From: Nitrospirota bacterium
Lineage (GTDB): Bacteria > Nitrospirota > 9FT-COMBO-42-15 > HDB-SIOI813
Assembly: GCA_020851375.1 (NCBI GenBank)
Contig: JADZCV010000045.1
Span: 128,046 to 192,045 of the forward strand
Length of the DNA stretch: 64,000 nt
Reading direction: 5' to 3'
Positions 6,420-60,087 of this stretch are shown here, in pieces. A program made the translations under genes and the position numbers. The number at the start of each line of letters is the position of its first letter. Position 1 is the stretch's first letter. The notes under the pieces were generated by a model. It saw nothing but the letters and a program-made list of their open reading frames with translations. It was not told the origin of the DNA and did not search any database.

Positions 6420-7238
6420 TTAACCAAAGCTCCTTACTATCGAACCTATAATCAGGTACCATCCGTCAACAAGAACAAACAGCATCAGCTTAAACGGCAG
6501 TGATATCACTACAGGCGGAAGCATTAACATTCCCATTGACATTAAGACGCTTGCAACCACCATATCAAGCACAAGAAATGGTATATAGATCAGGAACCCT
6601 ATCTGGAATGCCGTCTTAAGTTCACTTATCATAAAGGCAGGTATGAGCACATGAGTCGGCACCTCTGCCACATTTTTAGGATCCGGTATCCTTGCCATCT
6701 CTATGAACAGCGAGAGGTCTTTCTCCCTTACCTGCCTGAGCATAAATTCCCGTACCGGCACTATTGCCCTGTCAAATGCAACCGCCTGAGTTATTTGATT
6801 CGTCATCAATGGCTGCAATGCCTCATTGTTAACCCTGGTCCATACAGGCGACATTATGAAGAAGGTCAGAAATAATGACAGGCTGATTAATATCTGATTT
6901 GGCGGAATCTGAGGCGTGCCGAGCGCCTGACGCAGAAGCGAAAGGACAACAGCAATCCTGGTAAAAGACGTGACCATGACGATAATAGCCGGAGCCAGTG
7001 ATAAAACTGTCAGAAGCATGAGGATCTGCACTGTAACTGCAGTCCCACCGGCCCCTTGTTGCCCTCCAATACTGAAATTGATATTGGGAAGGACGCCTGC
7101 ACCGGTTGATGTAACCGCACCCCAGGCTAAACAACCGCCATTAACAGGGGAAAGTAATGCTGCCGTTCCGGCAGCAATGATCTTTAATATAGCCTTATGC
7201 CTTTTCCCACAATTCATCTTGCAGCTCGACCTTTTCAT
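6420..7238 (-). CDS. fliP: Flagellar export apparatus protein FliP (with signal peptide)
   Basis: Signal peptide followed by a conserved FliP TM core (TSFTRIAVVLSLLRQALG, PFKLMLFVLVDGW). Confidence 0.9.
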   Translation of the reverse strand: MKRSSCKMNCGKRHKAILKIIAAGTAALLSPVNGGCLAWGAVTSTGAGVLPNINFSIGGQQGAGGTAVTVQILMLLTVLSLAPAIIVMVTSFTRIAVVLSLLRQALGTPQIPPNQILISLSLFLTFFIMSPVWTRVNNEALQPLMTNQITQAVAFDRAIVPVREFMLRQVREKDLSLFIEMARIPDPKNVAEVPTHVLIPAFMISELKTAFQIGFLIYIPFLVLDMVVASVLMSMGMLMLPPVVISLPFKLMLFVLVDGWYLIIGSIVRSFG

Positions 7239-8274
7239 TTGTTGATTCTGGTTTAATCTGCTGATCCAGTATATCGTTGAAATCTTCTTCTCTCCCCACC
7301 TTAGTAAGCATGGTAATATTTGCAGCTGTTACACCAACCACAATCTTCTCTCCGGCAACCTCCACCAATGCTATGGATTTTCTGGGTCCAAGGTAGGTGC
7401 TTGTCAGCACCTTGATCTTCTGATCCTGTCCGGTAAGCCCGATTTTTCTGCCGAGATATTTTTTTACGAGGAAGACTATGGCAAACATAACTGACAGTAC
7501 AATAGCGAGCGATGCCACCATCTTGATGACCGAACCTGTGAAACCAGGCTGTTCATTCACGACTAACGGTTTGCTTTCTACTGCATCATGCCTGACAGGA
7601 ATATCCTCTTCTTTTGTCATATCTGTGCCGCTTTCAGCCGGCGACTGACCTGTGCTGGCCACAGCATTTGCATCTTTGTTGCCAGCACCTCCATTCTTCT
7701 CAGCTACTGCAGCAATTGCAGATACTGCCGGCGAAACGGCTTCGTCAATCAGGGGCGACTCCCTGCCGGTTTCAGGCAAAACGATCTCAACCGGGATTGC
7801 TTTGGGCTTCTTTACCCCATTCTTAGCCACAGCCTTTGAAGCAGCTGCGGGCTTTCTGCCCGCCGCTTCAGGTCTCCTGCCATAACTGAGTATAAACCCG
7901 CTGTTCACCCTGCTCAGACTGATCCGGGCCCTCATATTGAGCGCCCTGTCATAAGTAAATAATCTTACCCTTACTGTTTCAGGATTTAATTGATATACAA
8001 ATATGTTCTTTACGATCTCATCTTCCACATTCAACCATTGTTTGGGAGGATCCGTATAGGTCTGAGGAAATTCAATCTGAACAAAGTCATCCTGATACTG
8101 TATTTTTTCCTGTCCTGGTTTACCGTCAAACTTAAGATCTATTTTTGTATTGTCAGGCGTAACTGCGATGCTTATATTACCGAGCAGTGCAAGCCCGGCT
8201 GGTTTGGCCAATGAATAGTTATACGATGTCAGCGACAATGACAATAGCATCATAACAAATATCATTCTTTTCAT
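7195..8274 (-). CDS. fliO: FliO/FliZ-like protein with a long N-terminal secreted extension
   Basis: The C-terminal about 100 aa (TM segment plus KVLTSTYLGPRKSIALVEVAGEKIVVGVTAANITML) is FliO-like. The N-terminal about 250 aa has a signal peptide, a beta-rich domain and an Ala/Pro-rich linker. It overlaps the fliP start by 44 nt. Confidence 0.6.
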   Translation of the reverse strand: MKRMIFVMMLLSLSLTSYNYSLAKPAGLALLGNISIAVTPDNTKIDLKFDGKPGQEKIQYQDDFVQIEFPQTYTDPPKQWLNVEDEIVKNIFVYQLNPETVRVRLFTYDRALNMRARISLSRVNSGFILSYGRRPEAAGRKPAAASKAVAKNGVKKPKAIPVEIVLPETGRESPLIDEAVSPAVSAIAAVAEKNGGAGNKDANAVASTGQSPAESGTDMTKEEDIPVRHDAVESKPLVVNEQPGFTGSVIKMVASLAIVLSVMFAIVFLVKKYLGRKIGLTGQDQKIKVLTSTYLGPRKSIALVEVAGEKIVVGVTAANITMLTKVGREEDFNDILDQQIKPESTNEKVELQDELWEKA

Positions 8275-10364: not shown

Positions 10365-10382
10365 TTGCAATGTATATGCCAC
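10365..10382 (-). promoter_or_regulatory. Sigma-54 (-24/-12) promoter for the fliL-to-flhG operon
   Basis: The minus strand reads TGGCATATACATTGCA, giving GG-N10-GC spacing identical to the TGGCACG-N4-TTGCW consensus. It lies about 55 nt upstream of the fliL ATG. Confidence 0.5.
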
Positions 10383-10518
10383 AAAGCAGTGGATTTTATA
10401 ATTATTATATCCTCAATATTTCAAGTAGTTACAGATTAGAGCCGGAGCAGGTGCGGCAGATATGGCGTCAAACTCGCAATGACATGTCATGTAATTGACA
10501 TAACCTTATAAGACACAA

Positions 10519-13699: not shown

Positions 13700-14278
13700 T
13701 TATCTGTCAACCTTTCCCGATGCCATCCTGGCACTTAGTGACGCGGCCTTGTCAGGAGAAATTGAACCAAGTATCTTTCCTGCCTGTTTCCCTTTTATCC
13801 TCATTAGCAGATTAACGGCAAGATCCGTTTCCATTTTCTCTATCCTCTGAGCAGCCTCTTCAACGGACATTGATTCATAAAGCCTGGCCATACGTGTAAG
13901 GCTGTCCTGAGGTTTATTGCCTGCCGGACTGCTTTGCATCCTGTCACGCATGGCGGTATATTGCTTTAGTGACAGTTCTACAGAAGACCTTAACATATTC
14001 AGCCGTTCTTCATCCTTCTTCAAGGCCTCTTCCCGCTTTGAAAGTTCCCTCTCCCTGTCTTCAAGGGCCTTCATTATTGACTGAATGTCTTTTTCACCGT
14101 CATCAGACACTTCTCCGCCTGTACCGCCATCCGCCGGCTGAGCCGGTGATTCACCGTGTCCGTTGTCCTGTTTCTGAACAGCCACTGCCGGTACAAATAA
14201 AAACATACCTATAAGAAACGTAAACAGGATGGTCAGGTATATTACAGGTTCTTTTCTTTTTAACAATGAATTACTCAA
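13700..14278 (-). CDS. YlxF-like flagellar operon protein (single TM, coiled coil, MgtE-N-like C-terminal domain)
   Basis: N-terminal TM segment, a Glu/Lys/Arg coiled coil, and a C-terminal LARLYESMSVEEAAQRIEKM motif. Same position as B. subtilis ylxF between fliJ and fliK. Confidence 0.5.
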   Translation of the reverse strand: MSNSLLKRKEPVIYLTILFTFLIGMFLFVPAVAVQKQDNGHGESPAQPADGGTGGEVSDDGEKDIQSIMKALEDRERELSKREEALKKDEERLNMLRSSVELSLKQYTAMRDRMQSSPAGNKPQDSLTRMARLYESMSVEEAAQRIEKMETDLAVNLLMRIKGKQAGKILGSISPDKAASLSARMASGKVDR

Positions 14279-20622: not shown

Positions 20623-20640
20623 TTTGCAAACGATATACCA
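20623..20640 (-). promoter_or_regulatory. Sigma-54 promoter for the flgB operon
   Basis: The minus strand reads TGGTATATCGTTTGCA with exact GG-N10-GC spacing. The -12 element is only about 18 nt from the flgB ATG, giving a near-leaderless transcript. Confidence 0.45.
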
Positions 20641-20759: not shown

Positions 20760-22115
20760 CTACACAATAATTCCTTCCTCCCTGTATTCGCTCAATTTAT
20801 TTCTAAGGGTGCGAATCCCTATGTTCAAAAGCTTTGCTGCTTTTGTCCTGTTCCAGTTGACATCCTCAAGGGTCTTAAGTATAAGGGCTGTTTCCATTTC
20901 CCGGACAGACATCCCTGCAGAAATGGAAGATGGCGTATTCCGGCTGTCTCTCTTACCCTCAATCATAAGGTGACCCGGAAGCAGAGTGTCGCCGTCGGCA
21001 ATCAGGATCGCCCTCTCTACAACATTCTCAAGCTCCCTGATATTCCCCTTCCAGTCATGGCTGATTAAGACATCCACGGCCTCATCTGATATTTTTGTAA
21101 CCGGGGCCCTGTTCCCGCGTGATCTATTGTCCTTAAGTTTCTTCATAAAGTGCCTTGCAAGTTCAGGGATGTCTCCCTTTCTGTCCTTCAGCGGAGGGAG
21201 TACCATCGGGAAGACGTTCAGCCTGTAGTAGAGATCCTCCCTGAATCTTCCCTCTTCCACCTCTCTTTTCAGCGTCCTGTTGGTTGTGGCAATAACACGG
21301 ATGTCAATATGAACAGGCTCTTTCCCGCCTATGGTGTCTACCTGCCTCTCCTGCAGCACCCTCAATAGCTTGGCCTGAAGCGGAAGACTCATCTCTCCCA
21401 CTTCATCAAGGAGCAATGTACCCGTATTTGCCTGTATAAACTTTCCGTTTCTCTTGCTGATGGCCCCGGTAAACGCCCCCTTTTCATGACCGAATAATTC
21501 ACTCTCAAGGAGTCCGTCAGGTATAGCCGCACAGTTTATGGCGACAAACGGATTTCCGGCCCTGTAACTTCTGTTATGAATAAACCTGGCAAGCATTTCC
21601 TTCCCGGTACCGCTCTCACCCTCTACCAGCACTGTAACATCACTAAATGCAATTTCCTGCGCAGTCTTTAATAATCTGAGCATACCAGGGTCTTTTGATA
21701 TAATAGCTGCTGCTTCTTTATCATCCGATGACGGTTTATTTGCATCCTGAACAGACTCAATACCACGTTTTACAAGGTCCTCAAGGGCATCCGCGGAAAA
21801 TGGCTTCATTATGTAGTCAAAAGCGCCCAGTTTCATCGCCTCAACTGCATTATCAATGGTGCCGTAAGCAGTAACAAGGATTACCGGGACATCAGGGGAG
21901 CGCCTTTTTACCTCCTTTAGCACATGAACTCCGTCGCCATTTGCCATCCTGACATCCGTTATCACCATGTCAAACTGTTTTGATGAAAACTTTCGTATAG
22001 CCTCATCTCCGCCGGATGCAATATCAACTGAATATCCACACCTCCTTAGTGTTTCACTCATGGCAAAACGCATTTCGCAGTCATCATCTGACAGAAGTAT
22101 TGTCCGCCCCATCAA
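20760..22115 (-). CDS. Sigma-54-dependent response regulator (NtrC family; FleR/FlrC/FlgR-like)
   Basis: Receiver domain with phospho-acceptor region (DMVITDVRM), AAA+ Walker A GESGTGKE, the GAFTGA sigma-54 contact motif, and a C-terminal Fis-type HTH. Confidence 0.85.
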   Translation of the reverse strand: MMGRTILLSDDDCEMRFAMSETLRRCGYSVDIASGGDEAIRKFSSKQFDMVITDVRMANGDGVHVLKEVKRRSPDVPVILVTAYGTIDNAVEAMKLGAFDYIMKPFSADALEDLVKRGIESVQDANKPSSDDKEAAAIISKDPGMLRLLKTAQEIAFSDVTVLVEGESGTGKEMLARFIHNRSYRAGNPFVAINCAAIPDGLLESELFGHEKGAFTGAISKRNGKFIQANTGTLLLDEVGEMSLPLQAKLLRVLQERQVDTIGGKEPVHIDIRVIATTNRTLKREVEEGRFREDLYYRLNVFPMVLPPLKDRKGDIPELARHFMKKLKDNRSRGNRAPVTKISDEAVDVLISHDWKGNIRELENVVERAILIADGDTLLPGHLMIEGKRDSRNTPSSISAGMSVREMETALILKTLEDVNWNRTKAAKLLNIGIRTLRNKLSEYREEGIIV

Positions 22116-22882
22116 GCTCCCCCCCCCTTTAAAGGCAAATGCATAACAAAAAGACTGCCGGCCCCTGGCTTGCTGTAGACATTAATGCTCCCTCTGTGGG
22201 CGCTTATAATATTGTGCACGATGGTAAGGCCGAGGCCTGTGCCATTTTCCCTGGTCGTGAAAAATGGGTCGAATATCCTGTTCATGTCTGCAGAGGCAAT
22301 CCCGGCACCTGTATCCTGAACTGATATATCAACTGTATCGTTGGCAGTATCCTCGACTGCCTCAATAGTGAGGCTGCCTGAATCCTCCATGAACTGAAGG
22401 GAATTCAGAAACAGATTAAGAAAAACCTGCCGCAGTAATGTCTTATCGCAAAACAACCTGAGACGGTCAGGACATCTTTTTACCACACTGATATTCTTTT
22501 TATTTATCAGATACGACACGCCTTCGAGACTGTTATCAATTATTGTCCCAATCCCTGCCTTTTCATAAGCAGGTTTGGGAAGCCTGGTAAAGTGCAGCAG
22601 GTTTGATAAAACCGCATCAATATTTTTGACTCCATAAATTATATGCCCCAATAAAACCTGTTTATCAGGGTCTGCTGCCAGCTCTTTCCGTAATAAGGAT
22701 GTAATCAGTTCAATGCTCCCCAGGGGATTTCTGATGTCATGGACTATCTTTGTCACCATCCCCCCCATAGACTGCAGGCGCACTTCCCTTTCATGGCCGT
22801 CTCTGTAATTTAAATCAGGATATGGTTCTGTTCCCCCGTATTCAGGCACTTCACATCTGTGTGATATATTTTTATCGTTCAT
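22112..22882 (-). CDS. Cytoplasmic sensor histidine kinase (FleS/FlrB/FlgS-like)
   Basis: H-box HDIRNPLGSI, HATPase G-boxes (DTGAGI, GTGLGL) and no TM segments. Start and stop codons overlap with the flanking operon genes. Confidence 0.8.
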   Translation of the reverse strand: MNDKNISHRCEVPEYGGTEPYPDLNYRDGHEREVRLQSMGGMVTKIVHDIRNPLGSIELITSLLRKELAADPDKQVLLGHIIYGVKNIDAVLSNLLHFTRLPKPAYEKAGIGTIIDNSLEGVSYLINKKNISVVKRCPDRLRLFCDKTLLRQVFLNLFLNSLQFMEDSGSLTIEAVEDTANDTVDISVQDTGAGIASADMNRIFDPFFTTRENGTGLGLTIVHNIISAHRGSINVYSKPGAGSLFVMHLPLKGGGA

Positions 22883-22887
22883 GGCAA

Positions 22888-24963
22888 TTAATTCAGTTGT
22901 CCTGAAGCATAGGCAATGTCTTTTATGCGCTCCTCAGAAATCTGTTTGACAAGATTATTATTGCCCCCGGATAACTTTGAGAACACCTTTTTGGCATCCT
23001 CCGCCCTTCCCAGCCTTAAAAGGCAGTCCCCTATCATAAACTCCACTGTATCAGAGCCTTCCTTAAGCCATCCCCCTTTTAATCCTGCATTGTATGCATC
23101 CATTGCCTCCTGGTACTTCTGCAATCCATAATAAGCATTGCCAAGCATGACATAACCATTTGACGCAAACCCGGCGTTTGGCTGTTTCCTGACACCTGTA
23201 AGCATATCCCTGAGGACAGCAATGCTGTCTTCATACTGAGTCCTGTTCTGCAACATGGTCGCAAGTTTTATATAGGCATCAGGATAGCGGTACGGTGCAT
23301 CTCTTATTACTGCATATAAATTATTGCTCGCCTTTTCATACTCTTTGAGGTTATAGAAACTGTTGCCGGCAAGAGCCCTTGCTTCATTTGTCATACTGCC
23401 GTCCGGGAATTCTGATAAAAGTCGTCCAAGCAGCCCGACCGCCTTTCTGTCATCACCGGACAAGGCATACAACTTTCCTGCGTTAAACAACGCCTGCTCT
23501 CTTCTGCTTCCATTTCTCTCAATAATGGCTTCATAGATCACATGTGCGTCATTGTAAAAGTGAAGCCCCTCATGCATGGCAGCTATACCCATGAGAAGTC
23601 CTTCGTTCTTCACATACCTGAGGTTATCCCTGTAAAAGGCATGGTATAGTTTAAGAACACCGGCCTTGTCACCCCGGTCAAGCCTGTCCCTTATCTTTAT
23701 CCCTATTCTGTCAATAGCATCGCTGAGCGCTTCTGAGACCTCACTTCTTAAATTACTGTCTGGATTATTGATAAGTTCGAGATAGACGTTAAATGACTGC
23801 TGGAGCCTGCCCTGTTCCTCCATTACTTTAGCTGTCTTAAACCTTGCTGTGGCAACAAGGACATTATTTTCTGAAGCTGTTTCAACATCCTTATAGTATT
23901 TCAACGTATCCTGATTGAACTTATCAGCCGGAATCGCCGGACGTCCGCGAGATGATCTGGCCTCCCTGTTGGATTGAAGCTTCATGTCCCCCAGTGCAAG
24001 CATACTCGAAAAGGAATCATCGCTGTCAGGGAAGTACATGATTACATCACGAAATATCTTCTCAGCAACAGGATAGTTTCGCGAAATGGCAAATGTCTCT
24101 GCCGCCCTTTTAAGGGCTAAACCGGCCTGACCGTCTTTTGGGTACAGATTATAAAAAGTCAGAAAGCCTTCCCTTGCCTTTATAATTTCTCCATTCTGAA
24201 ACTGACACTCACTATATTCATGCAGGATTTCAGGATTGCCTTTCATGTAGGCCGGCCATCTTCTTAGTCCCTCTTCAAAGTACTTTCTTGCATCACCAAA
24301 CTCATTGAGTAAAAAAAGTAACTCAGCAGCAAGGAATACCCTTTCCTTCTCCATCTTGCCATTGTATCTTAACATCAGCACATCAAGGTCTGACAATGCA
24401 TCTTTGAAATTACCCAACTTAAGATTGATAACTGCCAGCATATATTGTGCCCTTGCAGCAAACAGGGTTGACGGATAATCCTCGATCACCCTCCTGAAAT
24501 TTCCCTTAGCCTCAGCAATCAGGTTTAGATCAAGGTATATGTTGCCTGTCTCAAGAAGTATTTCCGGAATCTTTCCCTTTTCCCGTGCCGGACATAACCT
24601 CAGACCAAACTGAAATGACCGGAGCGCGTTCATCATAACCTTTTCATTTTTCCTGCCATCTCTTAATGCAAGCCAGCGGTATATGCTGCCTGCGTAGAGT
24701 GATGAGACAGCGGAGACTTCACTGTTCCTGCCGTCCATCGTAAACTGCACAAACTGATCAAGGGCCAGTTCGTAATTACCCCCCTTAAAAGCAACCAATG
24801 CCTCCTGGAATTCCTTCGCTCCGTCACCGTTCACCCTGTCTGTCCATGAAACGATAATCGTTTCAGGAGATGGAGGAAACAGGGCAGGCGTCTTGTATAA
24901 TACAGATGCGCTGGAGTCGCTTATGCTGAGAACGACAAATAGTAAGATAATAATTATCTGCAT
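22888..24963 (-). CDS. Periplasmic TPR-repeat protein (691 aa, signal peptide); first gene of the kinase/regulator operon
   Basis: N-terminal signal peptide and many 34-aa TPR-like repeats along the protein. Its stop lies 6 nt from the kinase start. Confidence 0.7.
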   Translation of the reverse strand: MQIIIILLFVVLSISDSSASVLYKTPALFPPSPETIIVSWTDRVNGDGAKEFQEALVAFKGGNYELALDQFVQFTMDGRNSEVSAVSSLYAGSIYRWLALRDGRKNEKVMMNALRSFQFGLRLCPAREKGKIPEILLETGNIYLDLNLIAEAKGNFRRVIEDYPSTLFAARAQYMLAVINLKLGNFKDALSDLDVLMLRYNGKMEKERVFLAAELLFLLNEFGDARKYFEEGLRRWPAYMKGNPEILHEYSECQFQNGEIIKAREGFLTFYNLYPKDGQAGLALKRAAETFAISRNYPVAEKIFRDVIMYFPDSDDSFSSMLALGDMKLQSNREARSSRGRPAIPADKFNQDTLKYYKDVETASENNVLVATARFKTAKVMEEQGRLQQSFNVYLELINNPDSNLRSEVSEALSDAIDRIGIKIRDRLDRGDKAGVLKLYHAFYRDNLRYVKNEGLLMGIAAMHEGLHFYNDAHVIYEAIIERNGSRREQALFNAGKLYALSGDDRKAVGLLGRLLSEFPDGSMTNEARALAGNSFYNLKEYEKASNNLYAVIRDAPYRYPDAYIKLATMLQNRTQYEDSIAVLRDMLTGVRKQPNAGFASNGYVMLGNAYYGLQKYQEAMDAYNAGLKGGWLKEGSDTVEFMIGDCLLRLGRAEDAKKVFSKLSGGNNNLVKQISEERIKDIAYASGQLN

Positions 24964-24975
24964 CGAAGATGCTTA

Positions 24976-24993
24976 GAAGCAATAGACGTGCCA
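24976..24993 (-). promoter_or_regulatory. Sigma-54 promoter for the TPR-kinase-regulator operon
   Basis: The minus strand reads TGGCACGTCTATTGCT, a perfect TGGCACG-N4-TTGC consensus, ending 15 nt before the ATG. Confidence 0.55.
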
Positions 24994-25121
24994 GTAAATA
25001 TCACGGGACACTCGTTTTATAACTAATTGATATTGTGGATGAATTACATATTGAAAAGGATGGCGTGGTTTTATCTTGTCAATAACTTGACAAGATGGCA
25101 GTCAAAATATTTATTGCAGGA

Positions 25122-26519
25122 TCAGGCATTAATATGAAAGTCTAACTTCTTCTTCTTGAGTTTTTCCACAAGAGTAGTGCGATTTAAGGAGAGTAGCTGT
25201 GCTGCCTTATTCTTTACGCCCTGTGCCTTTTGCATGGCCTGAAGGATCAGGTTATTCTCAAACTCCTCTACGACATCCTTCAGATTGACACCGGTTTCAG
25301 GAAGGGTTACGTGCAGTGCGCGGGCGCCGTCTTTGCTTAACTTATGTGAAATGAATTTATCAGGCAGGTCTTCAGGACAAATAGTTCCATCGCCTTTGAG
25401 TATTACAAGTCTTTCAACAAGGTTCTCAAGCTCCCGTATATTCCCGGGCCAGGGATATGTCACAAGTATTTCCATTGCTGCAGGTGAAAATCCCTTTATC
25501 TCTCTCTTCTTTGACTTGTTGAAATAACTGAGGAAGTGATCCATCAACAAAGGTATATCATCTGTACGGTCTCTCAATGGGGGAATTACTACTGGTATTA
25601 CATTAAGACGATAATAGAGGTCTTCCCTGAACTTTCCTTCATGGACGGCTGTTTCAAGATCAATATTTGTAGCAGCAATAATCCTGACATCCACCTTAAT
25701 AGTCTTAACACCACCTACACGCTCGAACTCGCGCTGCTGCAGTACCCGGAGGAGTTTGACCTGAAGCGTCGGACTCATGTCGCCTATTTCATCAAGAAAT
25801 ATTGTCCCTCCGTCTGCAAGTTCAAATCTTCCAATACGAGTGCTGCTTGCACCGGTGAATGCGCCCTTTTCATGCCCAAACAATTCACTCTCCAGCAGTG
25901 TTTCCGGGATGGCGCCGCAATTTATCGGAATAAGAGGCTTATTCTTTCTTGGACTATTGTAATGTATGGTCCTTGCAACCATCTCTTTTCCAGTACCGCT
26001 CTCCCCAAGTATGAGGATAGTGCTGTCAGTCTCTGCAACCTTCTCTATGAGTGAACAGACTTTTTGAATACCTTCACTGCACCCTATGAGATTCTCAAAA
26101 CCATACCTCTGATGAAGACTCTTTTTAAGCTGACTATTCTCTGTCTGCAGGTCCTGTAATTCAATCACACGTTTCAGAAGTATTAAGACTTCCGTACCGT
26201 TAAATGGCTTCATCAGGTAATCATATGCGCCTGCCTTCATTGCATCTATTGCGTTAGATACAGTGGCATAGCCTGTAATGACTATGCAAGGCAAATCAGC
26301 ATCTATGGCCCTGATATTTTTAATGACATCAATACCGCTCATCCCAGACAGCATAAGGTCTGTAATTAATACATTAAACTTATCCCTGCCTGCTGCTTCC
26401 ATGGCTGACTGTCCATCTGCTGCAGCAGTTACCTCGTAGCCATTCATCGAGAGGAGAGTAATCATCGTCTCCCTGATGTCAGCATCATCATCTACAAGGA
26501 GAATGCGGGGGGATTTCAT
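25122..26519 (-). CDS. Sigma-54-dependent response regulator (NtrC family), second copy
   Basis: Receiver domain ([11 protein letters not shown]), AAA+ [14 protein letters not shown], and a C-terminal HTH. Confidence 0.85.
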
Positions 26520-26525
26520 GACATA

Positions 26526-26566
26526 ATCTTACAAATTCTTGACGCCAATGTCAACATTTATATAAT
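26526..26566. promoter_or_regulatory. Divergent sigma-70-like promoters sharing the palindrome TTGACgccaatGTCAA
   Basis: Plus strand: TTGACG-16 nt-TATAAT ahead of the fis-like gene. Minus strand: TTGACA-17 nt-TAAGAT ending 6 nt before the second regulator's ATG, so that transcript would be leaderless. Confidence 0.35.
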
Positions 26567-26604
26567 TGACTTAATTTAATCTTTTATGATACAAGAATAC
26601 GGTC

Positions 26605-27048
26605 ATGGAAAACGATAGTATTGTCATTATTGGAAAGAATAACGGGTTGTCTGAACTAAGAAAGACATGGGGAGAGAAGGGCATAGAAGTAACACTTATC
26701 AAAGATGCACATGAGGCAAAAAAGAGAATAGGAAAAACCCCGTGCAGTCTTGTTGGACTTGATCCTGATACATTCAATTCAATCGTTTCACAGAATAGCC
26801 AGCCAACAGTGTCACTTAAAGATTATATAGAAAAAAGAATCCACGACTTTATCAGGAGATTTAAGTCATCAGAAGGATCCAACCTTTACTATACCCTTTT
26901 GCGTGAAATTGAAAAACCTCTCATAACCATGACACTTAAAGAGACTAAGGGGAATCAACTGGAAGCAGCCCACATCCTCGGATTAAACAGAAATACCCTC
27001 AGGAAAAAAATCAAAGAGTTAAATATATCGCTTGACAAGATGAAATAA
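26605..27048 (+). CDS. Fis-family DNA-binding protein with a degenerate receiver-like N-terminal domain
   Basis: C-terminal Fis-type HTH (QLEAAHILGLNRNTLRKKIKEL). Confidence 0.6.
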   Translation: MENDSIVIIGKNNGLSELRKTWGEKGIEVTLIKDAHEAKKRIGKTPCSLVGLDPDTFNSIVSQNSQPTVSLKDYIEKRIHDFIRRFKSSEGSNLYYTLLREIEKPLITMTLKETKGNQLEAAHILGLNRNTLRKKIKELNISLDKMK

Positions 27049-27090
27049 TGTCTGTTAATCTGTCTCCTGTTTTTCCACCGGAGGCCTTCA

Positions 27091-27363
27091 ATGACAAAAG
27101 CAGAACTGACAGACAAGATAGCAATTTCAGCAGGTATCAGCAGGACAGCAGCATCAAACGCGCTGAACTCCATGCTTGAAAATATAACCAGGGCATTGCA
27201 GAAGGGACAAAAGGTAACTCTGCTCGGGTTCGGAACATTCTCAGTACAGCACAGGAAGGCCCGCTCCGGCAGGAATCCAAAGACTGGTGAAGAGATAAAG
27301 ATACCGGCAGGTAAATTGCCTAAGTTTACAGCCGGGACAGCCCTCAAGAATTCCCTCAAATAG
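27091..27363 (+). CDS. hup: Nucleoid protein HU/IHF family
   Basis: 90 aa with the classic HU signature GFGTF...RNPKTGEEIKIPA. Confidence 0.9.
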   Translation: MTKAELTDKIAISAGISRTAASNALNSMLENITRALQKGQKVTLLGFGTFSVQHRKARSGRNPKTGEEIKIPAGKLPKFTAGTALKNSLK

Positions 27364-44355: not shown

Positions 44356-45123
44356 TCACCGTTTATTGAACATTTCAATATACTTCATGGCCTCAGCCGC
44401 TGCTTCGCTGTCAGGCGCCAGCGCTACCACTTTCTTAAACGCTGTAAGCGCCTCCTCTTTATTCCCCTCCCTGGAATATGCCAGGCCAATATTGAGCCAC
44501 GCATCCACACTGGCCTGGTCCTTTTTCCGGGCCTCATCATATGCAGATATGGCTTCCCTTATCATATCAATCTTCATGTATGTGTGGCCAAGCCACAGAT
44601 AAAACACAGAACTGTCCGGTTGTATCTTTACTGCCTCTTTAAACTCCGTAAGAGCTGACTTGAAATCACCTTTTTTAAAGTACGCAATGCCAAGGTTGTA
44701 TCTCGCCCCCTGCGGCGTACTGTATTGCGGATTGCTCAGGGCCTTATCATACTCGCCCACGGCATCATCCCATAGTTCCATCTTCCCATACGCAGCTCCA
44801 AGGGCATTATGCGCATCACTATACATAGGGTCTATCTCCAGCGCCTTGCTGTATTCCCTGACAGCATCATTGAACTTCTCCATCCTGAAATAGACATGTC
44901 CAAGTGCATAATGATACGTCTTCTCATCAGGATCAAATTCCACTGCCTGGCTGAATTCAATAAAGGCCATCTGCAGATTGTTTTCATTCAGATAGGCAAT
45001 ACCAAGCTTGTGATGGGCATCAGCCTCCCTTTCGCTCTTTATCCTGCTCTTTGTAAGTCCGCAACCGGATAACAGCAATAGGACAACTGCCGCGAAGGCA
45101 AATATAGTCTTGTAATGCTTCAT
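44356..45123 (-). CDS. TPR-repeat lipoprotein (PilF/PilW-like)
   Basis: Lipoprotein signal with an LSGC lipobox, followed by 6 TPR repeats. Confidence 0.7.
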   Translation of the reverse strand: MKHYKTIFAFAAVVLLLLSGCGLTKSRIKSEREADAHHKLGIAYLNENNLQMAFIEFSQAVEFDPDEKTYHYALGHVYFRMEKFNDAVREYSKALEIDPMYSDAHNALGAAYGKMELWDDAVGEYDKALSNPQYSTPQGARYNLGIAYFKKGDFKSALTEFKEAVKIQPDSSVFYLWLGHTYMKIDMIREAISAYDEARKKDQASVDAWLNIGLAYSREGNKEEALTAFKKVVALAPDSEAAAEAMKYIEMFNKR

Positions 45124-49989: not shown

Positions 49990-50889
49990 CTACTTAAGGT
50001 CCGCTAATCTTATCCTGGCGAGTGAAGCCTCCGGAGAATAGGGCAATTGCTCTACAACCTTCTTAAAATACAGCTTTGCCATGTCCTTATTTCCCAGCTT
50101 TTCATATCCGTAGCCCATCTTAAGCAGTGCGCCTGCCACCTTGTCACTTTTCGGATAATCAATCGTTACACTCTCAAAGACAGTTACAGACTTTGTATAG
50201 TCACCCTTGCTGTAAAAACACTCCCCTATCCAATACAGGGCATTTGGCGCTAAATTCCCTGTTGGAGACTGACGCAGGTAATTGTAGAAACCCTCTATGG
50301 CAGGATCAAAATGACCTGACATGTAATCCTTATATGCCTGATTGTAAAGTTCGGAGGGTGCTGATGCAGAAGCGCTCTCTGATGGTTTTGCGGCAGTTGA
50401 CTGAGCAGGCGGTTGTCCGGACTGCGTCACAGGCGGTGCAGGGGCAAGAATTGTATCCTGCTGTCTGTTCCTCTCCCCTTTCGCTGATTCCAGGTTATCA
50501 AGCCTTCTTGACATCTCCTGAATAGCAGCGTCATGATCATCAACACTCTCTGTCAACTCAGTCACCTTGTGAGTATTTTCCTCTACTCCGCCCTGAATAA
50601 TCTGGACATCGGTCGCAAGCTGCGTCAACCTCCCCTCAAAATCAGCCTGGTTCTTCTGCAGCATATCAATGGATCCGGAATTTTGAGATTCCAGCCTCGA
50701 CATCAGCTCTTTAATAGACTGTTTCTCATCGGGCTGGGACTGCTGGAGATTTGAAAAATCCCTCTGTGTCTGAAGTAAAATGACCTTCATGCGGTTGACC
50801 TCATTTTCCAGATCAACGAATTCAGACTGCATGGCACAACCGGAAACAGAAATAACCAGTGCAACAAAAGTCAACAATATCTTTTTCAC
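49990..50889 (-). CDS. cpoB: Tol-Pal-associated CpoB/YbgF-like protein (lipoprotein signal, coiled coil, C-terminal TPR), GTG start
   Basis: SD GAGGAGG 9 nt before the GTG; lipobox VSGC; a coiled coil; and a C-terminal TPR region YWIGECFYSKGDY. The longest ORF would overlap tolB. Confidence 0.7.
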   Translation of the reverse strand: MKKILLTFVALVISVSGCAMQSEFVDLENEVNRMKVILLQTQRDFSNLQQSQPDEKQSIKELMSRLESQNSGSIDMLQKNQADFEGRLTQLATDVQIIQGGVEENTHKVTELTESVDDHDAAIQEMSRRLDNLESAKGERNRQQDTILAPAPPVTQSGQPPAQSTAAKPSESASASAPSELYNQAYKDYMSGHFDPAIEGFYNYLRQSPTGNLAPNALYWIGECFYSKGDYTKSVTVFESVTIDYPKSDKVAGALLKMGYGYEKLGNKDMAKLYFKKVVEQLPYSPEASLARIRLADLK

Positions 50890-50947
50890 CTGAAAACCCC
50901 TCCTCGTCCTGCCAGTCCACAGCCGGCCATTAAGGCCTGCGCCGCAT

Positions 50948-52237
50948 TTAATTAGGGGACCAGTCCGGCCCCGTGTTATTCCCGCCATTATTTGTCAATC
51001 TGAGCGCCTCACCGCCCTCAGCGCTTATAACATATATGTCAGACTTTCTGCCCCTTGATGATGCATATGTGACCCACTTGCCGTCAGGAGACCATGATGG
51101 GGACTCATCACTTCCGGGACCTTTTGATATCTCCCTTAGATCACTGCCGTCCGGGTTGACAAGACAAATACGAAAGCTCCCCCCCCGCCTGCATGAAAAC
51201 GCTATCCTGTCACCTCTGGGCGACCATGCAGGTTCGCTGTTATAGTCTCCCTTAAAGGTCAATCTGCGTACATTGGTGCCATCTGCCTTCATCACATATA
51301 TCTGCGGACTTCGTCCCCTGTCTGATGTAAAGGCAATCTCCTCACCGGCAGGAGACCAGGTTGGTGACACATCTTCTCCGTTGGCATATGTAATCCTCCT
51401 TAATCCCTTTCCATCCCTGTTCATTGTATATATCTCGGCATTCCCATCCCTGCTTGTTGAAAATGCTATTGTATTGCCATCAGGAGACCAGGATGGCGAA
51501 ATATCCAGTCCTGAATAATCAGTCAGCCTCAACCGTTTGCTCGTGTTCAAATCTACCATATATATATCAGGATTGCCATCCCTGTATGACGTGTAGGCTA
51601 TTTGAGTTCCGCCGGGTGACCAGTCAGGCGACATGTTGATTGACCTGTTTCCTGTAATCATCTTTGATGAAAAACCGTCATAGTCCATAATGTAGAGCTC
51701 CTTGCTCCCGGTGTGATCAGACACGTAAGAAATGCGTGTCTGTGCAATCCCCTTTTCTCCTGTCATCCTGAATACTATCTCGTCTGAATACCTGTGGACT
51801 ATCCTTCGAAGGATATTATTGTTTCCTATATATTTCCTGGCATAGATCAGCTCTCCGCTCCCTGTCTCATACAATTTGCCATCCAGCCTTATCGTCTTTC
51901 CGTCCCTGAATACCTGCGCAACAACCAATGCCTCAGCGCCGGATGAAGTCAATTGTCCGCGAATGGCCTCGCCAAGCCTGTCTGGAACCCCTTTTAATTG
52001 AGGTCCCTGGATTGTAATCAGCTTAAAATATAAGGAGCGCTCAAGGTCATTTAAGAGTATCTTTCCTACTGCAGTTTTCAACTCCTGGTCATCGCCTGTA
52101 ATCACTACTGATACAGGGATCTTCTCAATCTCTCCCTTCTTCGTCTCAATATATACCTCTTCAGATAGCGCTGCCTTAAATGAGAGGGCAGACAGCAATA
52201 CAAAAAAAGTAAACAGATGTAATATTTTCTTCTTCAA
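50948..52237 (-). CDS. tolB: Tol-Pal system beta-propeller protein TolB
   Basis: Signal peptide and repeated PDWSPDG propeller blades. Confidence 0.9.
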   Translation of the reverse strand: MKKKILHLFTFFVLLSALSFKAALSEEVYIETKKGEIEKIPVSVVITGDDQELKTAVGKILLNDLERSLYFKLITIQGPQLKGVPDRLGEAIRGQLTSSGAEALVVAQVFRDGKTIRLDGKLYETGSGELIYARKYIGNNNILRRIVHRYSDEIVFRMTGEKGIAQTRISYVSDHTGSKELYIMDYDGFSSKMITGNRSINMSPDWSPGGTQIAYTSYRDGNPDIYMVDLNTSKRLRLTDYSGLDISPSWSPDGNTIAFSTSRDGNAEIYTMNRDGKGLRRITYANGEDVSPTWSPAGEEIAFTSDRGRSPQIYVMKADGTNVRRLTFKGDYNSEPAWSPRGDRIAFSCRRGGSFRICLVNPDGSDLREISKGPGSDESPSWSPDGKWVTYASSRGRKSDIYVISAEGGEALRLTNNGGNNTGPDWSPN

Positions 52238-53019
52238 CCCTTCTCCCCGAATATAAACCTGTAATGCACTTTCAGGGAATCCCCTTTATAACCACGGGGT
52301 AACGGAGGAAAAGGGGTCGAAAGGGTCACAGCCCTCAGGGCAGTTTGATCAAAATATCTGTCTCCTGACGAATCCGCAACCTTCACGTTACTGACATCCC
52401 CTTTTCTGTTAATGGTAAATTCAATAAGTGCTTTTCTCATGTTACTGTGAGTTACAGGCTGACTCCACCTGTTATCAACCTTATTTTTTATGAGCCCGAG
52501 ATAATAGTCATATTTAAATGAAGGCAGGTCTACTACTGGTCCGCTTACCATCTGACCGCTTCCGCCAAGTTTTGAATCTCTCTGAGATTGAACTTCGCCC
52601 GGCCCCCCAACCCTCTCTTCTGCACTGTCTCCTGCAGGCTTCACCGGTGTTGCAATTACCTCCTTCTGCTTTTTTATGCCACTCTCGATTACCTCTCTTA
52701 ATTTCTCGATCCTTTTCGATGGACTTATGTCCTCTTTCTTTTCGATGACTGCACTTTTCTTTTTTTCTGTCTTTTTTACAGTTGCAGTGCTTTTCACGAC
52801 CCTTGAGATTTCCGGTTCAGGGGCTGTCATGCGGCCCGGATTTTCTTTAGGAAGGTTTACAATGCTAACCTGTATCGAAGATAACGGAGAATATTTTGCT
52901 GTAAAGAGGTCCTTCCATCTTAAGAAACCGGAGGAAAATATCATTGACAGGATTGATATATGAAAAAGGAGGGATATTGTCAGCATCCACTTCAAGTTTG
53001 TCTCTGCTTGCCTGAACAT
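52234..53019 (-). CDS. tolA: TolA/TonB-family energy-transducer (N-terminal TM, Lys/Pro linker, TonB-C-like domain)
   Basis: Domain organisation as stated; lies between tolR and tolB. Confidence 0.6.
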   Translation of the reverse strand: MFRQAETNLKWMLTISLLFHISILSMIFSSGFLRWKDLFTAKYSPLSSIQVSIVNLPKENPGRMTAPEPEISRVVKSTATVKKTEKKKSAVIEKKEDISPSKRIEKLREVIESGIKKQKEVIATPVKPAGDSAEERVGGPGEVQSQRDSKLGGSGQMVSGPVVDLPSFKYDYYLGLIKNKVDNRWSQPVTHSNMRKALIEFTINRKGDVSNVKVADSSGDRYFDQTALRAVTLSTPFPPLPRGYKGDSLKVHYRFIFGEKG

Positions 53020-53037
53020 AAGTAAACTCTAATTGTT

Positions 53038-53442
53038 CTACTCCACCTCCTTAAGAGATTCTGTAACCATACCAAGCTTGTCTATGCCCATCCCTTTAAC
53101 TGTATCCATCACACTTACGATAGTCCCGTATGGTACAGACCTGTCTGCCTTCAAATAGACTGTCACATCAGCATCTTCAGCGCTCTTTTGCCTGATGGCA
53201 GATTCGATCCCCGCCATAGGGACCTTTCTGTCATCAATATAGACATTGCTGAACCTGTCAACAATAAGCATTATTCGCTGTTCCTGCTTTATCGTATTTA
53301 CGGACGACTTCGGAAGGTCAACATCAATGCCACGGTACATAAGTGGGGCTGATATCATGAAAATAATCAGCAGCACAAGGACTATATCAACAAACGGCAC
53401 CATGTTAATTTCAGACATCAGCCTGTATTTTTTATCAGTCAA
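53038..53442 (-). CDS. tolR: TolR/ExbD
   Basis: 134 aa with a single TM segment and the biopolymer-transport ExbD fold. Confidence 0.85.
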   Translation of the reverse strand: MTDKKYRLMSEINMVPFVDIVLVLLIIFMISAPLMYRGIDVDLPKSSVNTIKQEQRIMLIVDRFSNVYIDDRKVPMAGIESAIRQKSAEDADVTVYLKADRSVPYGTIVSVMDTVKGMGIDKLGMVTESLKEVE

Positions 53443-54177
53443 TCATGACCCCTTTTGAATCCTGGCTAAAGATGGTTCATCCGCTTCCTCGGCCTGACCG
53501 CTTCCTGCCCAGACATCGGCTTCAGCGTATGCTATGATCTCTCCTGAAAACACATCCATCTGCGATGCCATCTTTCTAACCCTGTTCAACAGATAATTAT
53601 AACCTATGACAGCAGGGATTGCGGTAGCAAGACCTGCGCCTGTAGCGATGAGCGCCTCAGCTATACCAGGCGCCACTGCCGCAATATTTGCCGAACCCTG
53701 CAGCCCTATCTGCTGAAATGCATGTATAATACCCCACACAGTACCAAACAATCCGATAAAGGGTGTAACATTCCCGGTAGTAGCAAGAAATGAGAGATAC
53801 TCCTCATAATATGATATTTCATCCTCGCTGGTGCTCTTTAATCTCCTGTCAATGGCATTCAGAAAGGCAGGCCGGTCGGTCAGCAGGCCCCCCTGTCCCT
53901 TCTTAATCTCATAGAACCTCGCATACCCCTCCTTAACCAGTGAAGCAAGCGGATTGTCCTTATTCTTTGACAAGGTATAGAGCTGGTGGATATTTTCAAT
54001 CTTTGAAAAGGTACCCATAAATTCTCTGGAATCCTTTTCTATCCTGCGGAACTGGAAAAACTTAAAGAACATGACAGCCCAGGATACAATGGAGAATATG
54101 AACAGGATTAACAGGACTACCTTGGCTACTATTCCGGCTGAGAAAATGAGTTTTAGGATTTCTGATTCTATATGCAT
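53443..54177 (-). CDS. tolQ: TolQ/ExbB (MotA family)
   Basis: 3 TM segments with the conserved C-terminal TM core. Confidence 0.85.
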   Translation of the reverse strand: MHIESEILKLIFSAGIVAKVVLLILFIFSIVSWAVMFFKFFQFRRIEKDSREFMGTFSKIENIHQLYTLSKNKDNPLASLVKEGYARFYEIKKGQGGLLTDRPAFLNAIDRRLKSTSEDEISYYEEYLSFLATTGNVTPFIGLFGTVWGIIHAFQQIGLQGSANIAAVAPGIAEALIATGAGLATAIPAVIGYNYLLNRVRKMASQMDVFSGEIIAYAEADVWAGSGQAEEADEPSLARIQKGS

Positions 54178-57688: not shown

Positions 57689-57889
57689 TCAAGAATACCA
57701 GAGGATATTCTTCACCCGTCCAACAATGCCGCTTTCAAGGCGCACCTTGATCCCGTGTGGATGCGTGGGTGACTTTGTCAGGATATCCTTAACTATACCT
57801 TCCGTCAGCCTTCCTGTACGCTGGTCATCCTTCGTTACCACCCGCACAAGCAGACCCTGTTTTATATCCGCTTTCTTTACCTCCTGCAT
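57689..57889 (-). CDS. YwbE-family small protein (DUF2196)
   Basis: 66 aa with TGRLTEGIVKDILTKSPTHPHGIKVRLESG, closely similar to B. subtilis YwbE. Confidence 0.65.
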   Translation of the reverse strand: MQEVKKADIKQGLLVRVVTKDDQRTGRLTEGIVKDILTKSPTHPHGIKVRLESGIVGRVKNILWYS

Positions 57890-59361
57890 GACGACAATAT
57901 CTCCTTGAAGTTTTCAAGTCCAGCCTCGATATTCTCGATGATTTCAGCTGCCAGTGTGTCGGGATCAGGCAAATTGTCCAGATCTGCAAGGGACTTGTCC
58001 TTCAACCATATGATATCAAGACTTGTCTTATCGCGGTTGATGATTTCGTCATAGGTGAATCGCCTCCACCTTCCTTCTGGATTGGTCTTAATATCCCAGG
58101 TCTCTTTCCTCCTATGCCTGTTCTCAGGTTTGTAGCATTCAATGAATTCTTTAAGGTCGTCAGGTTTCAACGGGTTCTTCTTGAGGGTATGATGGACATT
58201 GGTGCGGTAATCATAGACCCAGACCTCTTTCGTCCATGGGGCTTTACTCGCTGGCCTCGCGTCAAAGAAAAGGACATTCGCCTTCACCCCCTGGGCGTAA
58301 AATATCCCTGTCGGGAGGCGCAGGATGGTATGCAGTTCCGTTGTCTCCAGCAGTTTCTTTCTTACGGTTTCACCTGCGCCGCCTTCAAATAGGACATTGT
58401 CCGGCAGTACGACTGCCGCCTTCCCGTCTGTCTTCAGCATGGTCCGTATGTGCTGGACAAAGTTGAGTTGTTTATTGCTCGTGGTTGCCCAGAAGTCCTG
58501 ACGGTTGTAGGTCAGACCTTCTCTCTCCTGCTCCCCTTCTTCATTGGTAAAGGTCATACTGCTCTTTTTGCCGAAAGGCGGATTGGTAAGGACATAGTCT
58601 GCCCGCAAACCTGTATCTGCCACCAATGCATCCGTTGATGAAATTACGTTTTCACTGTCAATATCCCCGATGTTATGCAGGAACATGTTCATCAGCGCCA
58701 GTCTGCGGGTGTTGGCCACAATCTCGTTCCCGAAAAATGTCTTGTATTTCAAAGATTGTCTCTGGTCTTTGTCCAGATCATAGTTTTCCACGATAAAATC
58801 ATACGCAGCCAGAAAAAATCCGCCTGTTCCACAGGCTGGGTCAGCTATGATCTTCATGGGTTCCGGCCGCAGGCATGTGACCATTACCTTTATAAGCGCC
58901 CTGGGTGTGAAATACTGCCCTGCCCCGCTCTTCGTATCCTCTGCATTTTTCTCCAGCAGCCCCTCGTATATCGCGCCTTTTACATCAGCTCCCATCAGGC
59001 TCCATTGCTCCCTGTCAATCATATCAATGAGCTTATAGAGTTTTGCCGGATCCTGAATCTTGTTCTGGCTCTTGATGAAGATCTGCCCCAGTATCCCTTT
59101 CTGTTTCCCCAGCTCACGCAACAGCGTGGTGTAGTGTCCCTCCAGCTCTGCGCCCCGTTTGGCAGTCAGGCTTTCCCAATTGTATTCTACAGGAATCGGA
59201 AGCGACCGGCTGTAGGGCGGCTTGCTGTATTCATCAGCCAGCTTCAGAAAGAGGAGGTATGTAAGCTGCTCCAGGTAATCACCGTATCCCACTCCATCAT
59301 CACGGAGGGTGTTGCAGAAGGACCAGACCTTGCTTATGATGCCGGATGTATTGCTGCTCAT
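57877..59361 (-). CDS. hsdM: Type I restriction-modification N6-adenine methyltransferase subunit HsdM (apparently orphan)
   Basis: HsdM N-terminal domain; motif I DPACGTGGF; motif IV NPPFG. Confidence 0.9.
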   Translation of the reverse strand: MSSNTSGIISKVWSFCNTLRDDGVGYGDYLEQLTYLLFLKLADEYSKPPYSRSLPIPVEYNWESLTAKRGAELEGHYTTLLRELGKQKGILGQIFIKSQNKIQDPAKLYKLIDMIDREQWSLMGADVKGAIYEGLLEKNAEDTKSGAGQYFTPRALIKVMVTCLRPEPMKIIADPACGTGGFFLAAYDFIVENYDLDKDQRQSLKYKTFFGNEIVANTRRLALMNMFLHNIGDIDSENVISSTDALVADTGLRADYVLTNPPFGKKSSMTFTNEEGEQEREGLTYNRQDFWATTSNKQLNFVQHIRTMLKTDGKAAVVLPDNVLFEGGAGETVRKKLLETTELHTILRLPTGIFYAQGVKANVLFFDARPASKAPWTKEVWVYDYRTNVHHTLKKNPLKPDDLKEFIECYKPENRHRRKETWDIKTNPEGRWRRFTYDEIINRDKTSLDIIWLKDKSLADLDNLPDPDTLAAEIIENIEAGLENFKEILSSCRR

Positions 59362-59363
59362 AA

Positions 59364-60087
59364 CTATGTTTTCTCCTTGCCATATTCTGCAAGTTTTGTA
59401 CTTGTTGTATCACTCAAATAATACCCGCCTGTCTTTGGACTCCCTTTAAAAATAACAAGACCGGCTGATTGCATCTTTTGCATATCCCGTCTTATTGTTA
59501 CAGGAGTAACTCCGGTTCTTTCACTTAATTTTTTTGAACGGATTCCCGGATTCTGCTCAAGAATAATTATAATCTTCGACATTCTTTCCTTTACTGTATC
59601 ATTTACTGTATCACCTACTGTATCATTTACTATGTCACTTGCTGTGCCGGCTGATACAATAAGCTTTGCAAACATACTTTCATCCAATGGAATTATTATT
59701 TTGAAATAATTGCCTTCAATAAACTGGGGCTTTTTGCCAAGGGTATAAACAGGCAGGTACTTGTTAACGTTCAACACACCTGACCCAAGCTCATCCACCC
59801 GCCCAAGCTGGGTAAAGAATTTGCAAATCAATGGGTTTTTAGAAAAAGGAGTGAAGTTGTCCAGACGAATCGGACCTTCACCATTTTGAAATATTCACCA
59901 GATTGGCTTTCAATATTTCCACCTTTGAAGCATCCACACCTTTAACAGCGCCGGTATCAGCAACACCCAATAATATATCGCCCCCATCCCTGTTCAGCAT
60001 GGCACAGATGGTTTCAAAAAGGCTCTCAGGCAGTTCCGCCCTGGCCTCTTTGACCTCCAGACGGATGTTTTCACGCTGCTTGAGCAA
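59364..60087 (-). pseudogene. Disrupted AlbA_2/HATPase_c_4/HTH-type regulator (two ORF fragments of 69 and 155 aa)
   Basis: An N-terminal AlbA_2-like fragment (ELPESLFETICAMLNRDGGDILLGV) and a C-terminal fragment with a winged HTH, separated by 46 bp. The middle of the protein is missing. An internal 12-bp tandem repeat lies at 59590-59645. Confidence 0.45.

Follow-up and report, generated by a model that had tools for sequence, protein, structure and literature searches.

We propose that the tetratricopeptide repeat (TPR) protein encoded at 22888..24963 in the DNA stretch analysed here (64 kb of Nitrospirota contig JADZCV010000045.1, called the window below) is a structural part of the flagellar motor, situated in the periplasm and belonging to the same class of TPR "spoke" or collar proteins as PflA, MotK, MotC and FlcB. 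We put the probability of this reading at roughly 55%. The context of the gene, the architecture of its family and the presence of a partner gene are the reasons for thinking that the protein works like PflA. The first-pass annotation of the window had presented it as a possible PflA-like motor scaffold. The part of that claim which concerns the broad class and the mode of working is retained, given the synteny, the AMIN-plus-TPR relatives, the structural match to PflA and the FlgY-like gene. The stricter part, that the protein is a PflA, is not, as the characteristic beta-sandwich and loop are missing, genes for PflB, FlgP or FlgQ are not present in the window and the similarity does not extend beyond generic TPR.

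The N-terminus of the protein reads MQIIIILLFVVLSISDSSA up to the predicted cleavage point and SVLY after it, with small residues in positions -3 and -1 behind a hydrophobic core. This export pattern was kept in 18 of the 19 orthologues, namely those with a complete N-terminus, most of which start with MR. A lipobox cysteine was absent from the N-terminus, and the protein is predicted to bear a type I Sec signal peptide. The Pfam scan returned only TPR families and no enzyme domain. The AlphaFold2 model, built from an alignment of 19 sequences, had a mean predicted local distance difference test (pLDDT) score of 86.7; residues 49–686 formed 34 helices, and strands were absent. Taken together, the Pfam result and the all-helical model indicate that the secreted protein is a solenoid built of about 17 hairpins and devoid of any further domain. 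The disorder in the model was restricted to residues 1–20 (pLDDT below 50), residues 336–345 and the last three residues, and a gap of approximately 28 residues lay between the signal peptide and the first TPR helix. Within the extended peptide that covers this gap (residues 20–47), L22, Y23, P26 and W40 were invariant. Among the NCBIfam models, TIGR02795 recognized four YbgF/CpoB-like TPR modules (129.7 bits summed over the four stretches), the cutoff being passed only when the four repeats were summed. The earlier description of a secreted, all-TPR protein of 691 amino acids was thus borne out by the open reading frame, the signal-peptide pattern, Pfam and the model, secretion being read from the sequence. 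Two cysteines, C253 and C647, were invariant across all 19 close orthologues and were not kept in the wider family; a disulfide between them is possible.

A word-indexed homologue search, which saturates on TPR words, returned about 20 full-length homologues with 41–100% identity, all of them from Nitrospirota metagenome-assembled genomes. One was identical to the window protein and carries no annotation beyond "tetratricopeptide repeat protein". The scan of genome contigs gave three loci only, all in close Nitrospirota metagenome-assembled genomes. The order TPR gene, kinase, activator, flgB, flgC, fliE, fliF was kept in the loci L001, L003 and L004, where the TPR proteins are 60%, 46% and 45% identical to that of the window, respectively. 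When 1.84 billion representative proteins were searched exhaustively with the profile, the matches were of two types. The first type consisted of generic proteins of about 1000 amino acids matched in 7–12 short stretches. In the second type, proteins of 660–1140 amino acids were matched in a single colinear stretch, from approximately position 40 to position 674 of the profile. In 61 of the single-stretch proteins the matched core measured 639 ± 20 residues (ratio to the profile, 1.02 ± 0.02), which means that the length of the solenoid is conserved at about 16–21% identity. The named members of the profile family belong to Nitrospiria, Nitrospirota and Nitrospinota.

Five distant members were looked up, one of which lay on a 3-kb contig without context. 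The other four, on longer contigs, were all found at the head of an flgB cluster. In L009 the order was TPR gene, PAS kinase, activator, flgB and so on to fliJ, then a gene with an MgtE_N domain and fliK; in L012 the TPR gene, PAS kinase, activator and flgB followed each other in the same way. In L010 the TPR gene was flanked by two activator genes, the second of which was followed by flgB, and in L013 a single activator gene stood between the TPR gene and flgB. Counting orthologues of 41–60% identity together with members of about 20% identity, the placement at the head of (kinase)-activator-flgB-flgC-fliE-fliF held for all eight relatives with a contig that extends downstream. The family is a flagellar one, and the four distant loci at the same place provide orthology-grade evidence for it. 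An FlgY-like gene followed fliJ in both of the distant loci that reach that far. As the kinase gene is missing after the TPR gene in L010 and L013, the family-wide link is to the flgB operon and the activator, not to the kinase. Separately, two proteins of about 1000 amino acids from the word-indexed search (P0024 and P0025) were repeat-only matches, and their genes adjoin ExbB/MotA-family genes and not flagellar genes. At L008 (8001..12344) and on the P0025 contig, a TPR_6-rich protein of about 1000 amino acids is encoded directly upstream of a MotA/ExbB-family gene. This arrangement is a different, non-flagellar pairing of a TPR protein with a proton channel.

Many of the distant members carry an additional domain at the N-terminus. 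Pfam identified AMIN in P0053 (31 bits), P0109 and P0048, SPOR in P0072 and LysM in P0055. A local iterative hidden Markov model, seeded on the N-termini of the domain-bearing distant members, detected AMIN-like domains, one or two per protein, in 31 of the 62 distant members, and about 19 had no extra domain, as in the window protein. By Pfam and alignment, AMIN was absent from the window protein and from its 18 close orthologues. The named AMIN-bearing members were Nitrospinota, and the named members without AMIN were Nitrospiria and Nitrospirota. We propose that in Nitrospinota and other lineages the solenoid is tethered to the peptidoglycan by an N-terminal AMIN, SPOR or LysM domain, and that in the Nitrospirota version this wall anchor was lost or was never present.

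The candidate partner is a 192-amino-acid protein encoded at 13700..14278, 11 genes downstream of the TPR gene. Its match to Pfam MgtE_N reached 28.6 bits for a cutoff of 25.9, and the NCBIfam model collar_FlbB gave only an E-value of 0.0019. The single-sequence AlphaFold2 model (pLDDT 77) consisted of an N-terminal transmembrane helix, a 57-residue helix and a five-helix, MgtE_N/ARM-like head. The sole Foldseek match below an E-value of 1e-3 was YlxF of Bacillus subtilis (chain 9a67_B, from an integrative FliF-YlxF model); FliG ARM and MgtE N-domains came next. The protein corresponds to the published definition of the FlgY/FlbB/MotE E-ring proteins. The E-ring proteins FlgY, FlbB and MotE are partners of the periplasmic TPR proteins PflA, FlcB and MotC/MotK, respectively (PMC13023049), and we presume that the 13700..14278 product is likewise the partner of the TPR protein.

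The flagellar genes of the window were found on the same strand in the order TPR gene, kinase, activator, flgB, flgC, fliE, fliF, fliG, fliH, fliI, fliJ, followed by the FlgY-like (MgtE_N-type) gene, fliK, flgD, flgE, fliL, fliM, fliN, fliO, fliP, flhA, flhF and flhG. Two genes thus separate the TPR gene from flgB. The TAA stop of the TPR gene ends at 22888 and the ATG of the kinase is at 22882, leaving a gap of 5 nucleotides, and the kinase frame is closed further upstream. The translational overlap between these two genes announced by the first-pass annotation was therefore an error; an overlap (TGATG) exists only at the junction between the kinase and the regulator. No convincing terminator was found between the TPR, kinase and regulator genes. 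Given this and the tight spacings, the three genes are likely co-transcribed. The kinase consists of HisKA and HATPase_c domains only, and the observation that it has no sensing domain was correct. It contains no hydrophobic segment and is for this reason taken to be cytoplasmic.

The TPR gene had also been credited with its own sigma-54 promoter, and this holds. The -24/-12 box listed in Table 1 is the sole exact match to TGGCAC-N5-TTGCW in the window. The intergenic DNA upstream of the TPR gene was aligned for five loci (the window, L001, L003, L004 and L005). The sequences were diverged except for three kept blocks, which corresponded to a perfect palindrome, an IHF-like AATCAA-N-AGTTA (IHF, integration host factor) and the -24/-12 box. 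Every related locus with an upstream region had a TGGYAY-N5-TTGC box directly before the TPR gene, including the loci of members that are only about 20% identical. A second box was present directly upstream of flgB in every related locus containing flgB; in the window, the position of this box marks a predicted separate promoter for the flgB operon. The distance from the -12 element to the ATG of the TPR gene was 14–20 nucleotides in the four orthologue loci (window, L001, L003 and L004), which implies a 5' untranslated region of only a few nucleotides (probably about 3–6 in the window) and a near-leaderless sigma-54 transcript. In the same four loci, L004 excepted, a Shine-Dalgarno sequence was absent at the TPR gene. 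The activator encoded upstream of the TPR gene is a candidate for the control of this promoter. A copy of the palindrome with one mismatch was found at 10485..10500 on the minus strand, approximately 105 nucleotides upstream of the sigma-54-type box of the fliL operon. The palindrome type shared by the two promoters suggests that the same activator probably serves the fliL and TPR operons. A clear terminator after flgE precedes the fliL-fliM-fliN operon. The upstream activator gene also belongs to a group of three, spanning 25122..27363, in which divergent genes for a 147-amino-acid Fis-like HTH_8 protein and a 90-amino-acid HU/IHF-like protein lie beyond it. The trio is kept in L001 and L003; it may stand at the top of the flagellar cascade and may also supply the protein that bends the DNA at the IHF-like site.

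Table 1. Positions in the window of the TPR gene, its control elements and the other genes discussed.
Feature	Position	Strand	Size	Description
TPR protein gene	22888..24963	-	691 aa	Real open reading frame; residues 1–19, predicted signal peptide; 20–47, conserved extended peptide; 49–686, about 17 TPR-like hairpins; 336–345, variable disordered loop
Sigma-54 -24/-12 promoter	24978..24993	-		TGGCACgtctaTTGCT; ends 14 nt before the ATG of the TPR gene
IHF-like site	25017..25034	-		AATATCAATTAGTTATAA, fits WATCAANNNNTTR; between the enhancer candidate and the promoter; predicted IHF binding
Perfect palindrome	25077..25092	-		TGTCAA-N4-TTGACA; about 100 nt upstream of the promoter; candidate enhancer (upstream activating sequence) for a sigma-54 activator
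Upstream activator gene	25122..26519	-	465 aa	REC-sigma54-HTH_8; kept upstream of the TPR gene in L001, L003, L009 and L010
Soluble histidine kinase gene	22112..22882	-	256 aa	HisKA and HATPase_c; no transmembrane segment, no sensor domain
Response regulator gene (FlgR/FlbD/FlrC-like)	20760..22115	-		REC-AAA+(sigma-54)-HTH_8; start overlaps the stop of the kinase gene
Second sigma-54-type box	20625..20640	-		TGGTATatcgtTTGCA; 18 nt before the ATG of flgB
FlgY/FlbB/YlxF-type E-ring protein gene	13700..14278	-	192 aa	Between fliJ and fliK, 11 genes downstream of the TPR gene
Sigma-54-type box of the fliL operon	10366..10381	-		TGGCATatacaTTGCA; upstream of fliL-fliM-fliN
Tol-pal-type cluster	49990..54177	-		TolQ, TolR, TonB_C/TolA-like protein, TolB and CpoB/YbgF (49990..50988, 332 aa)

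We propose the following sequence of events. The upstream sigma-54 activator, helped by an IHF/HU-type protein, would fire the near-leaderless promoter early in flagellar assembly, and the resulting transcript would also carry the genes for the soluble FlgS/FlgR-like kinase and regulator. The TPR protein would then be exported by the Sec pathway and its signal peptide cleaved after Ala19. It is predicted, with good confidence, to fold into a solenoid of fixed length made of about 17 TPR hairpins. By analogy with the known systems, several copies might assemble radially around the membrane-supramembrane ring (MS-ring) and the E-ring built by the FlgY/YlxF-like protein of the cluster. By the same analogy, they might position or stabilize periplasmic partners such as the MotB stator units or FliL. 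The conserved peptide of residues 20–47, kept instead of a wall anchor, may dock into a groove of the partner.

Several observations weigh against this proposal. The N-terminal beta-sandwich and loop of PflA (residues 16–163/168), which wrap PflB and are required for its recruitment (PMC12222027, PMC11870540), were found in the window protein neither by Pfam nor in the AlphaFold2 model, and membership of PflA in the strict sense fails on the lack of this defining feature. On the favourable side, Foldseek against the PDB placed chain 9hmf_K, the best bacterial match, from the model of the periplasmic scaffold of Campylobacter jejuni, at rank 2 of 350,542 chains, with an E-value of 6.6e-13 over 677 aligned columns; the next bacterial chain stood at 8.5e-9. 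This 773-residue chain would correspond to residues 16–788 of PflA. The scores of the match to PflA were, however, no better than those of generic TPR solenoids. Since the TPR fold is generic, a match of the superhelix is necessary for PflA identity but not sufficient. The first-pass annotation had named the lack of profile similarity beyond generic TPR as the result that would speak against its idea, and this was the result obtained. Neither phmmer nor profile searches against the sequences of the PDB ever returned PflA or PflB (no 9HMF chain). The matches were generic TPR proteins, YbgF/CpoB, Ctr9, subunits of the anaphase-promoting complex (APC) and designed TPR proteins, and the profile of the broad family, A3, acted as a detector of consensus TPR, with designed consensus TPR (CTPR) proteins at 1e-133.

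The genes that might accompany a PflA were also sought. Genes for pflB, flgP, flgQ and motAB were not found among the Pfam-scanned open reading frames of the window. A PflB-type protein (transmembrane helix, TPR and internal beta-pair) was likewise not present among these frames, which cover 64 kb of the genome. A small TPR protein encoded at 44356..45123 was considered as a PflB and rejected, as it has 255 amino acids, adjoins rodZ and shows no flagellar link. The elaborated, high-torque motor suggested earlier found no echo either, as nothing else in the window points to one. Finally, the gene neighbourhood supports a flagellar role and cannot tell a structural part from an assembly factor.

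This last point leads to the alternative that survives best, which we consider improbable but serious. The protein would be a periplasmic assembly factor or chaperone that transiently binds exported flagellar or stator proteins (rod, P-ring, MotB or FliL) at an early stage. In its favour, a sigma-54 promoter heading the basal-body operon would bring about early expression, neither a wall nor a membrane anchor is present in the window protein, TPR domains are typical of chaperone and adaptor modules, and a parallel exists in the role first proposed for the MotE/MotC pair. The NCBIfam matches to the type III secretion chaperone models LcrH/SycD and SctY point the same way, but they are weak and far under the cutoffs. 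The constancy of the solenoid (639 ± 20 residues across very distant members) and the peptidoglycan-binding domains in half of the relatives are more easily reconciled with a fixed architectural element than with a soluble chaperone.

A second alternative, which we regard as very unlikely, is that the protein is the periplasmic signal input, or checkpoint, of the kinase and sigma-54 regulator, its free or assembled state being relayed directly or through the MS-ring and E-ring to the later flagellar genes. The kinase encoded 5 nucleotides away is devoid of a sensor, the order TPR gene, kinase, activator recurs in L009 and L012, and FlgS of C. jejuni senses the assembly of the MS-ring and export gate. 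However, the kinases of L009 and L012 carry cytoplasmic PAS domains of their own, and in L010 and L013 the activator gene directly follows the TPR gene. A kinase with neither a transmembrane nor a periplasmic segment could make no contact with a periplasmic TPR protein. The role of direct periplasmic sensor was rejected on these grounds, the kinase being cytoplasmic and missing from two related loci, and the signal input put forward in the first-pass annotation found no support. An equally long shot is a one-operon, outside-in checkpoint, the TPR protein being more than a passive spoke. In this scheme, docking of the TPR protein on the FlgY/YlxF E-ring around FliF would license the co-transcribed FlgS-like kinase by way of the MS-ring. 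In a related one, residues 20–47 would provide a new mode of head-to-tail contact or partner docking in place of the AMIN/PflB anchor.

The least probable alternative is that the TPR gene simply adjoins the flagellar genes and encodes a general envelope protein similar to YbgF/CpoB or BamD; the four stretches matched by the tol_pal_ybgF model, the YbgF TPR domain as best PDB sequence match and the label "TolA-binding protein" given by IMG to some family members speak for it, but a genuine CpoB/YbgF, in which a coiled coil accompanies one C-terminal TPR domain, is encoded in the tolQ-tolR-tolA-tolB cluster of the window, and the flagellar position and sigma-54 promoter of the TPR gene are kept over phylum-level distances.

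Two further features of the window were recorded. The FliO-domain open reading frame at 7195..8274 on the minus strand encodes 359 amino acids, and Pfam FliO covers residues 269–338 only, the N-terminal part of about 260 residues having no Pfam match. At 57877..63059 on the minus strand, the genes for a type I restriction-modification methylase (HsdM), a small helix-turn-helix protein and a 928-amino-acid SNF2/helicase protein form what looks like a defence island.

If the periplasmic scaffold role is correct, the motors of Nitrospirota, a phylum with neither motor imaging nor motor genetics, carry a module of E-ring plus TPR spoke that, as was recently argued, is ancestral to the bacterial flagellum. 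E-ring proteins and TPR "spokes" have been proposed to be ancient and widespread (Feng et al., bioRxiv 2025, PMC11870540; Zhu et al., FEMS Microbiol Rev 2026, PMC13023049). In these works, any multi-TPR protein encoded within five genes of a flagellar cluster is counted as a potential PflA homologue. Feng et al. already list the TPR proteins of Nitrospirota flagellar clusters in this way, so the scaffold idea amounts to a published prediction for the phylum. The present analysis adds that the TPR proteins encoded in the flagellar clusters of Nitrospirota, Nitrospinota and related uncultured lineages belong to a single colinear sequence family, in which the length of the solenoid is fixed and the sigma-54 promoter conserved, and that this family has wall-anchored (AMIN, SPOR, LysM) and anchor-less versions. 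As the published catalogue groups the proteins by gene proximity only, a colinear family offers firmer ground for tracing the evolution of the module. For the window protein, the annotation "tetratricopeptide repeat protein" could be improved to [quoted passage not shown].

Among the known systems, PflA of C. jejuni and Helicobacter pylori is the periplasmic spoke of the proximal disk (PDB 9HMF; PMC12222027, PMC11870540, PMC12054838). Its 16–17 TPR motifs make up the radial spoke, the inner end of which meets the FlgY E-ring (PMC12222027, PMC11870540). The window protein resembles it in having a Sec signal peptide and a superhelix of 16–17 TPR motifs, about 620–640 residues long, and in the presence of an encoded E-ring partner of the FlgY type. 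It differs from PflA by the lack of the beta-sandwich and loop. The genetic location is also different, as the window gene stands at the head of the flgB operon, preceded by a sigma-54 promoter, whereas pflA in Campylobacterota is located apart from flgB. The AMIN domain of the distant family members resembles the beta-sandwich of PflA, which Feng et al. call PflA-AMIN. A layout of signal peptide, AMIN, linker and 17 TPR motifs has been described for both C. jejuni PflA and MotK (PMC11870540, PMC13023049), and half of the distant members share this combination of AMIN and TPR.

The FlcA/FlcB collar of Borrelia burgdorferi is made of TPR-rich periplasmic proteins that assemble on FlbB, the E-ring base, and are required for the stators to assemble (PMC13023049). 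The NCBIfam model of the FlcA C-terminus (NF047371, FlcA_CTERM) did not match the TPR protein at an E-value of 0.01 or below, and the spirochaete collar has several further components without a counterpart in the window. The repeats of the TPR protein have a TPR_6-type flavour in common with YbgF/CpoB of the Tol-Pal system, visible in the four YbgF-like modules, and the identity to the CpoB of the window was 25% over 114 residues. CpoB, of 332 amino acids, combines a coiled coil with one C-terminal TPR module and belongs to the tol-pal operon, whereas the TPR protein contains no coiled coil, comprises about 17 hairpins and is encoded in a flagellar operon. Identification of the latter as the Tol-Pal YbgF/CpoB was rejected, the genuine CpoB being located at 49990..50988. 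The likeness to CpoB fits the published speculation that PflA-type proteins were derived from Tol-Pal TPR modules.

The partners of MotE provide another parallel. Compared by description only, MotK of Cereibacter sphaeroides and MotC of Sinorhizobium meliloti are, like the window protein, periplasmic, mainly composed of TPR and encoded with flagellar genes, and their function is linked to MotB and to an E-ring-type protein (PMC13023049). Unlike MotK, the window protein has no AMIN domain. The sizes and sequences of MotK and MotC are highly diverged (PMC13023049). The closest published counterparts are the "TPR-1" proteins of Nitrospirota and Nitrospinota listed by Feng et al. As their list demands, the window protein has at least three consecutive TPR motifs without an enzyme domain, and a homologue of FlgY/FlbB/MotE is encoded at 13700..14278. 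The TPR gene lies within five genes of the flagellar cluster in the window as well as in L001, L003, L004, L009, L010, L012 and L013. In the entries of Supplementary Table 5 considered here (PMC11870540), each flagellated Nitrospirota species has one FlgY and one TPR protein of 528–726 amino acids, the TPR protein of Nitrospina (Nitrospinota) has 831, and the accession numbers of the two are mostly 10–11 apart (21 in one case). In these entries, the spacing of the accessions matches the 11-gene spacing between the TPR gene and the FlgY-like gene in the window, and the likeness to "TPR-1", a list built on proximity plus TPR alone, was judged by size, spacing and lineage.

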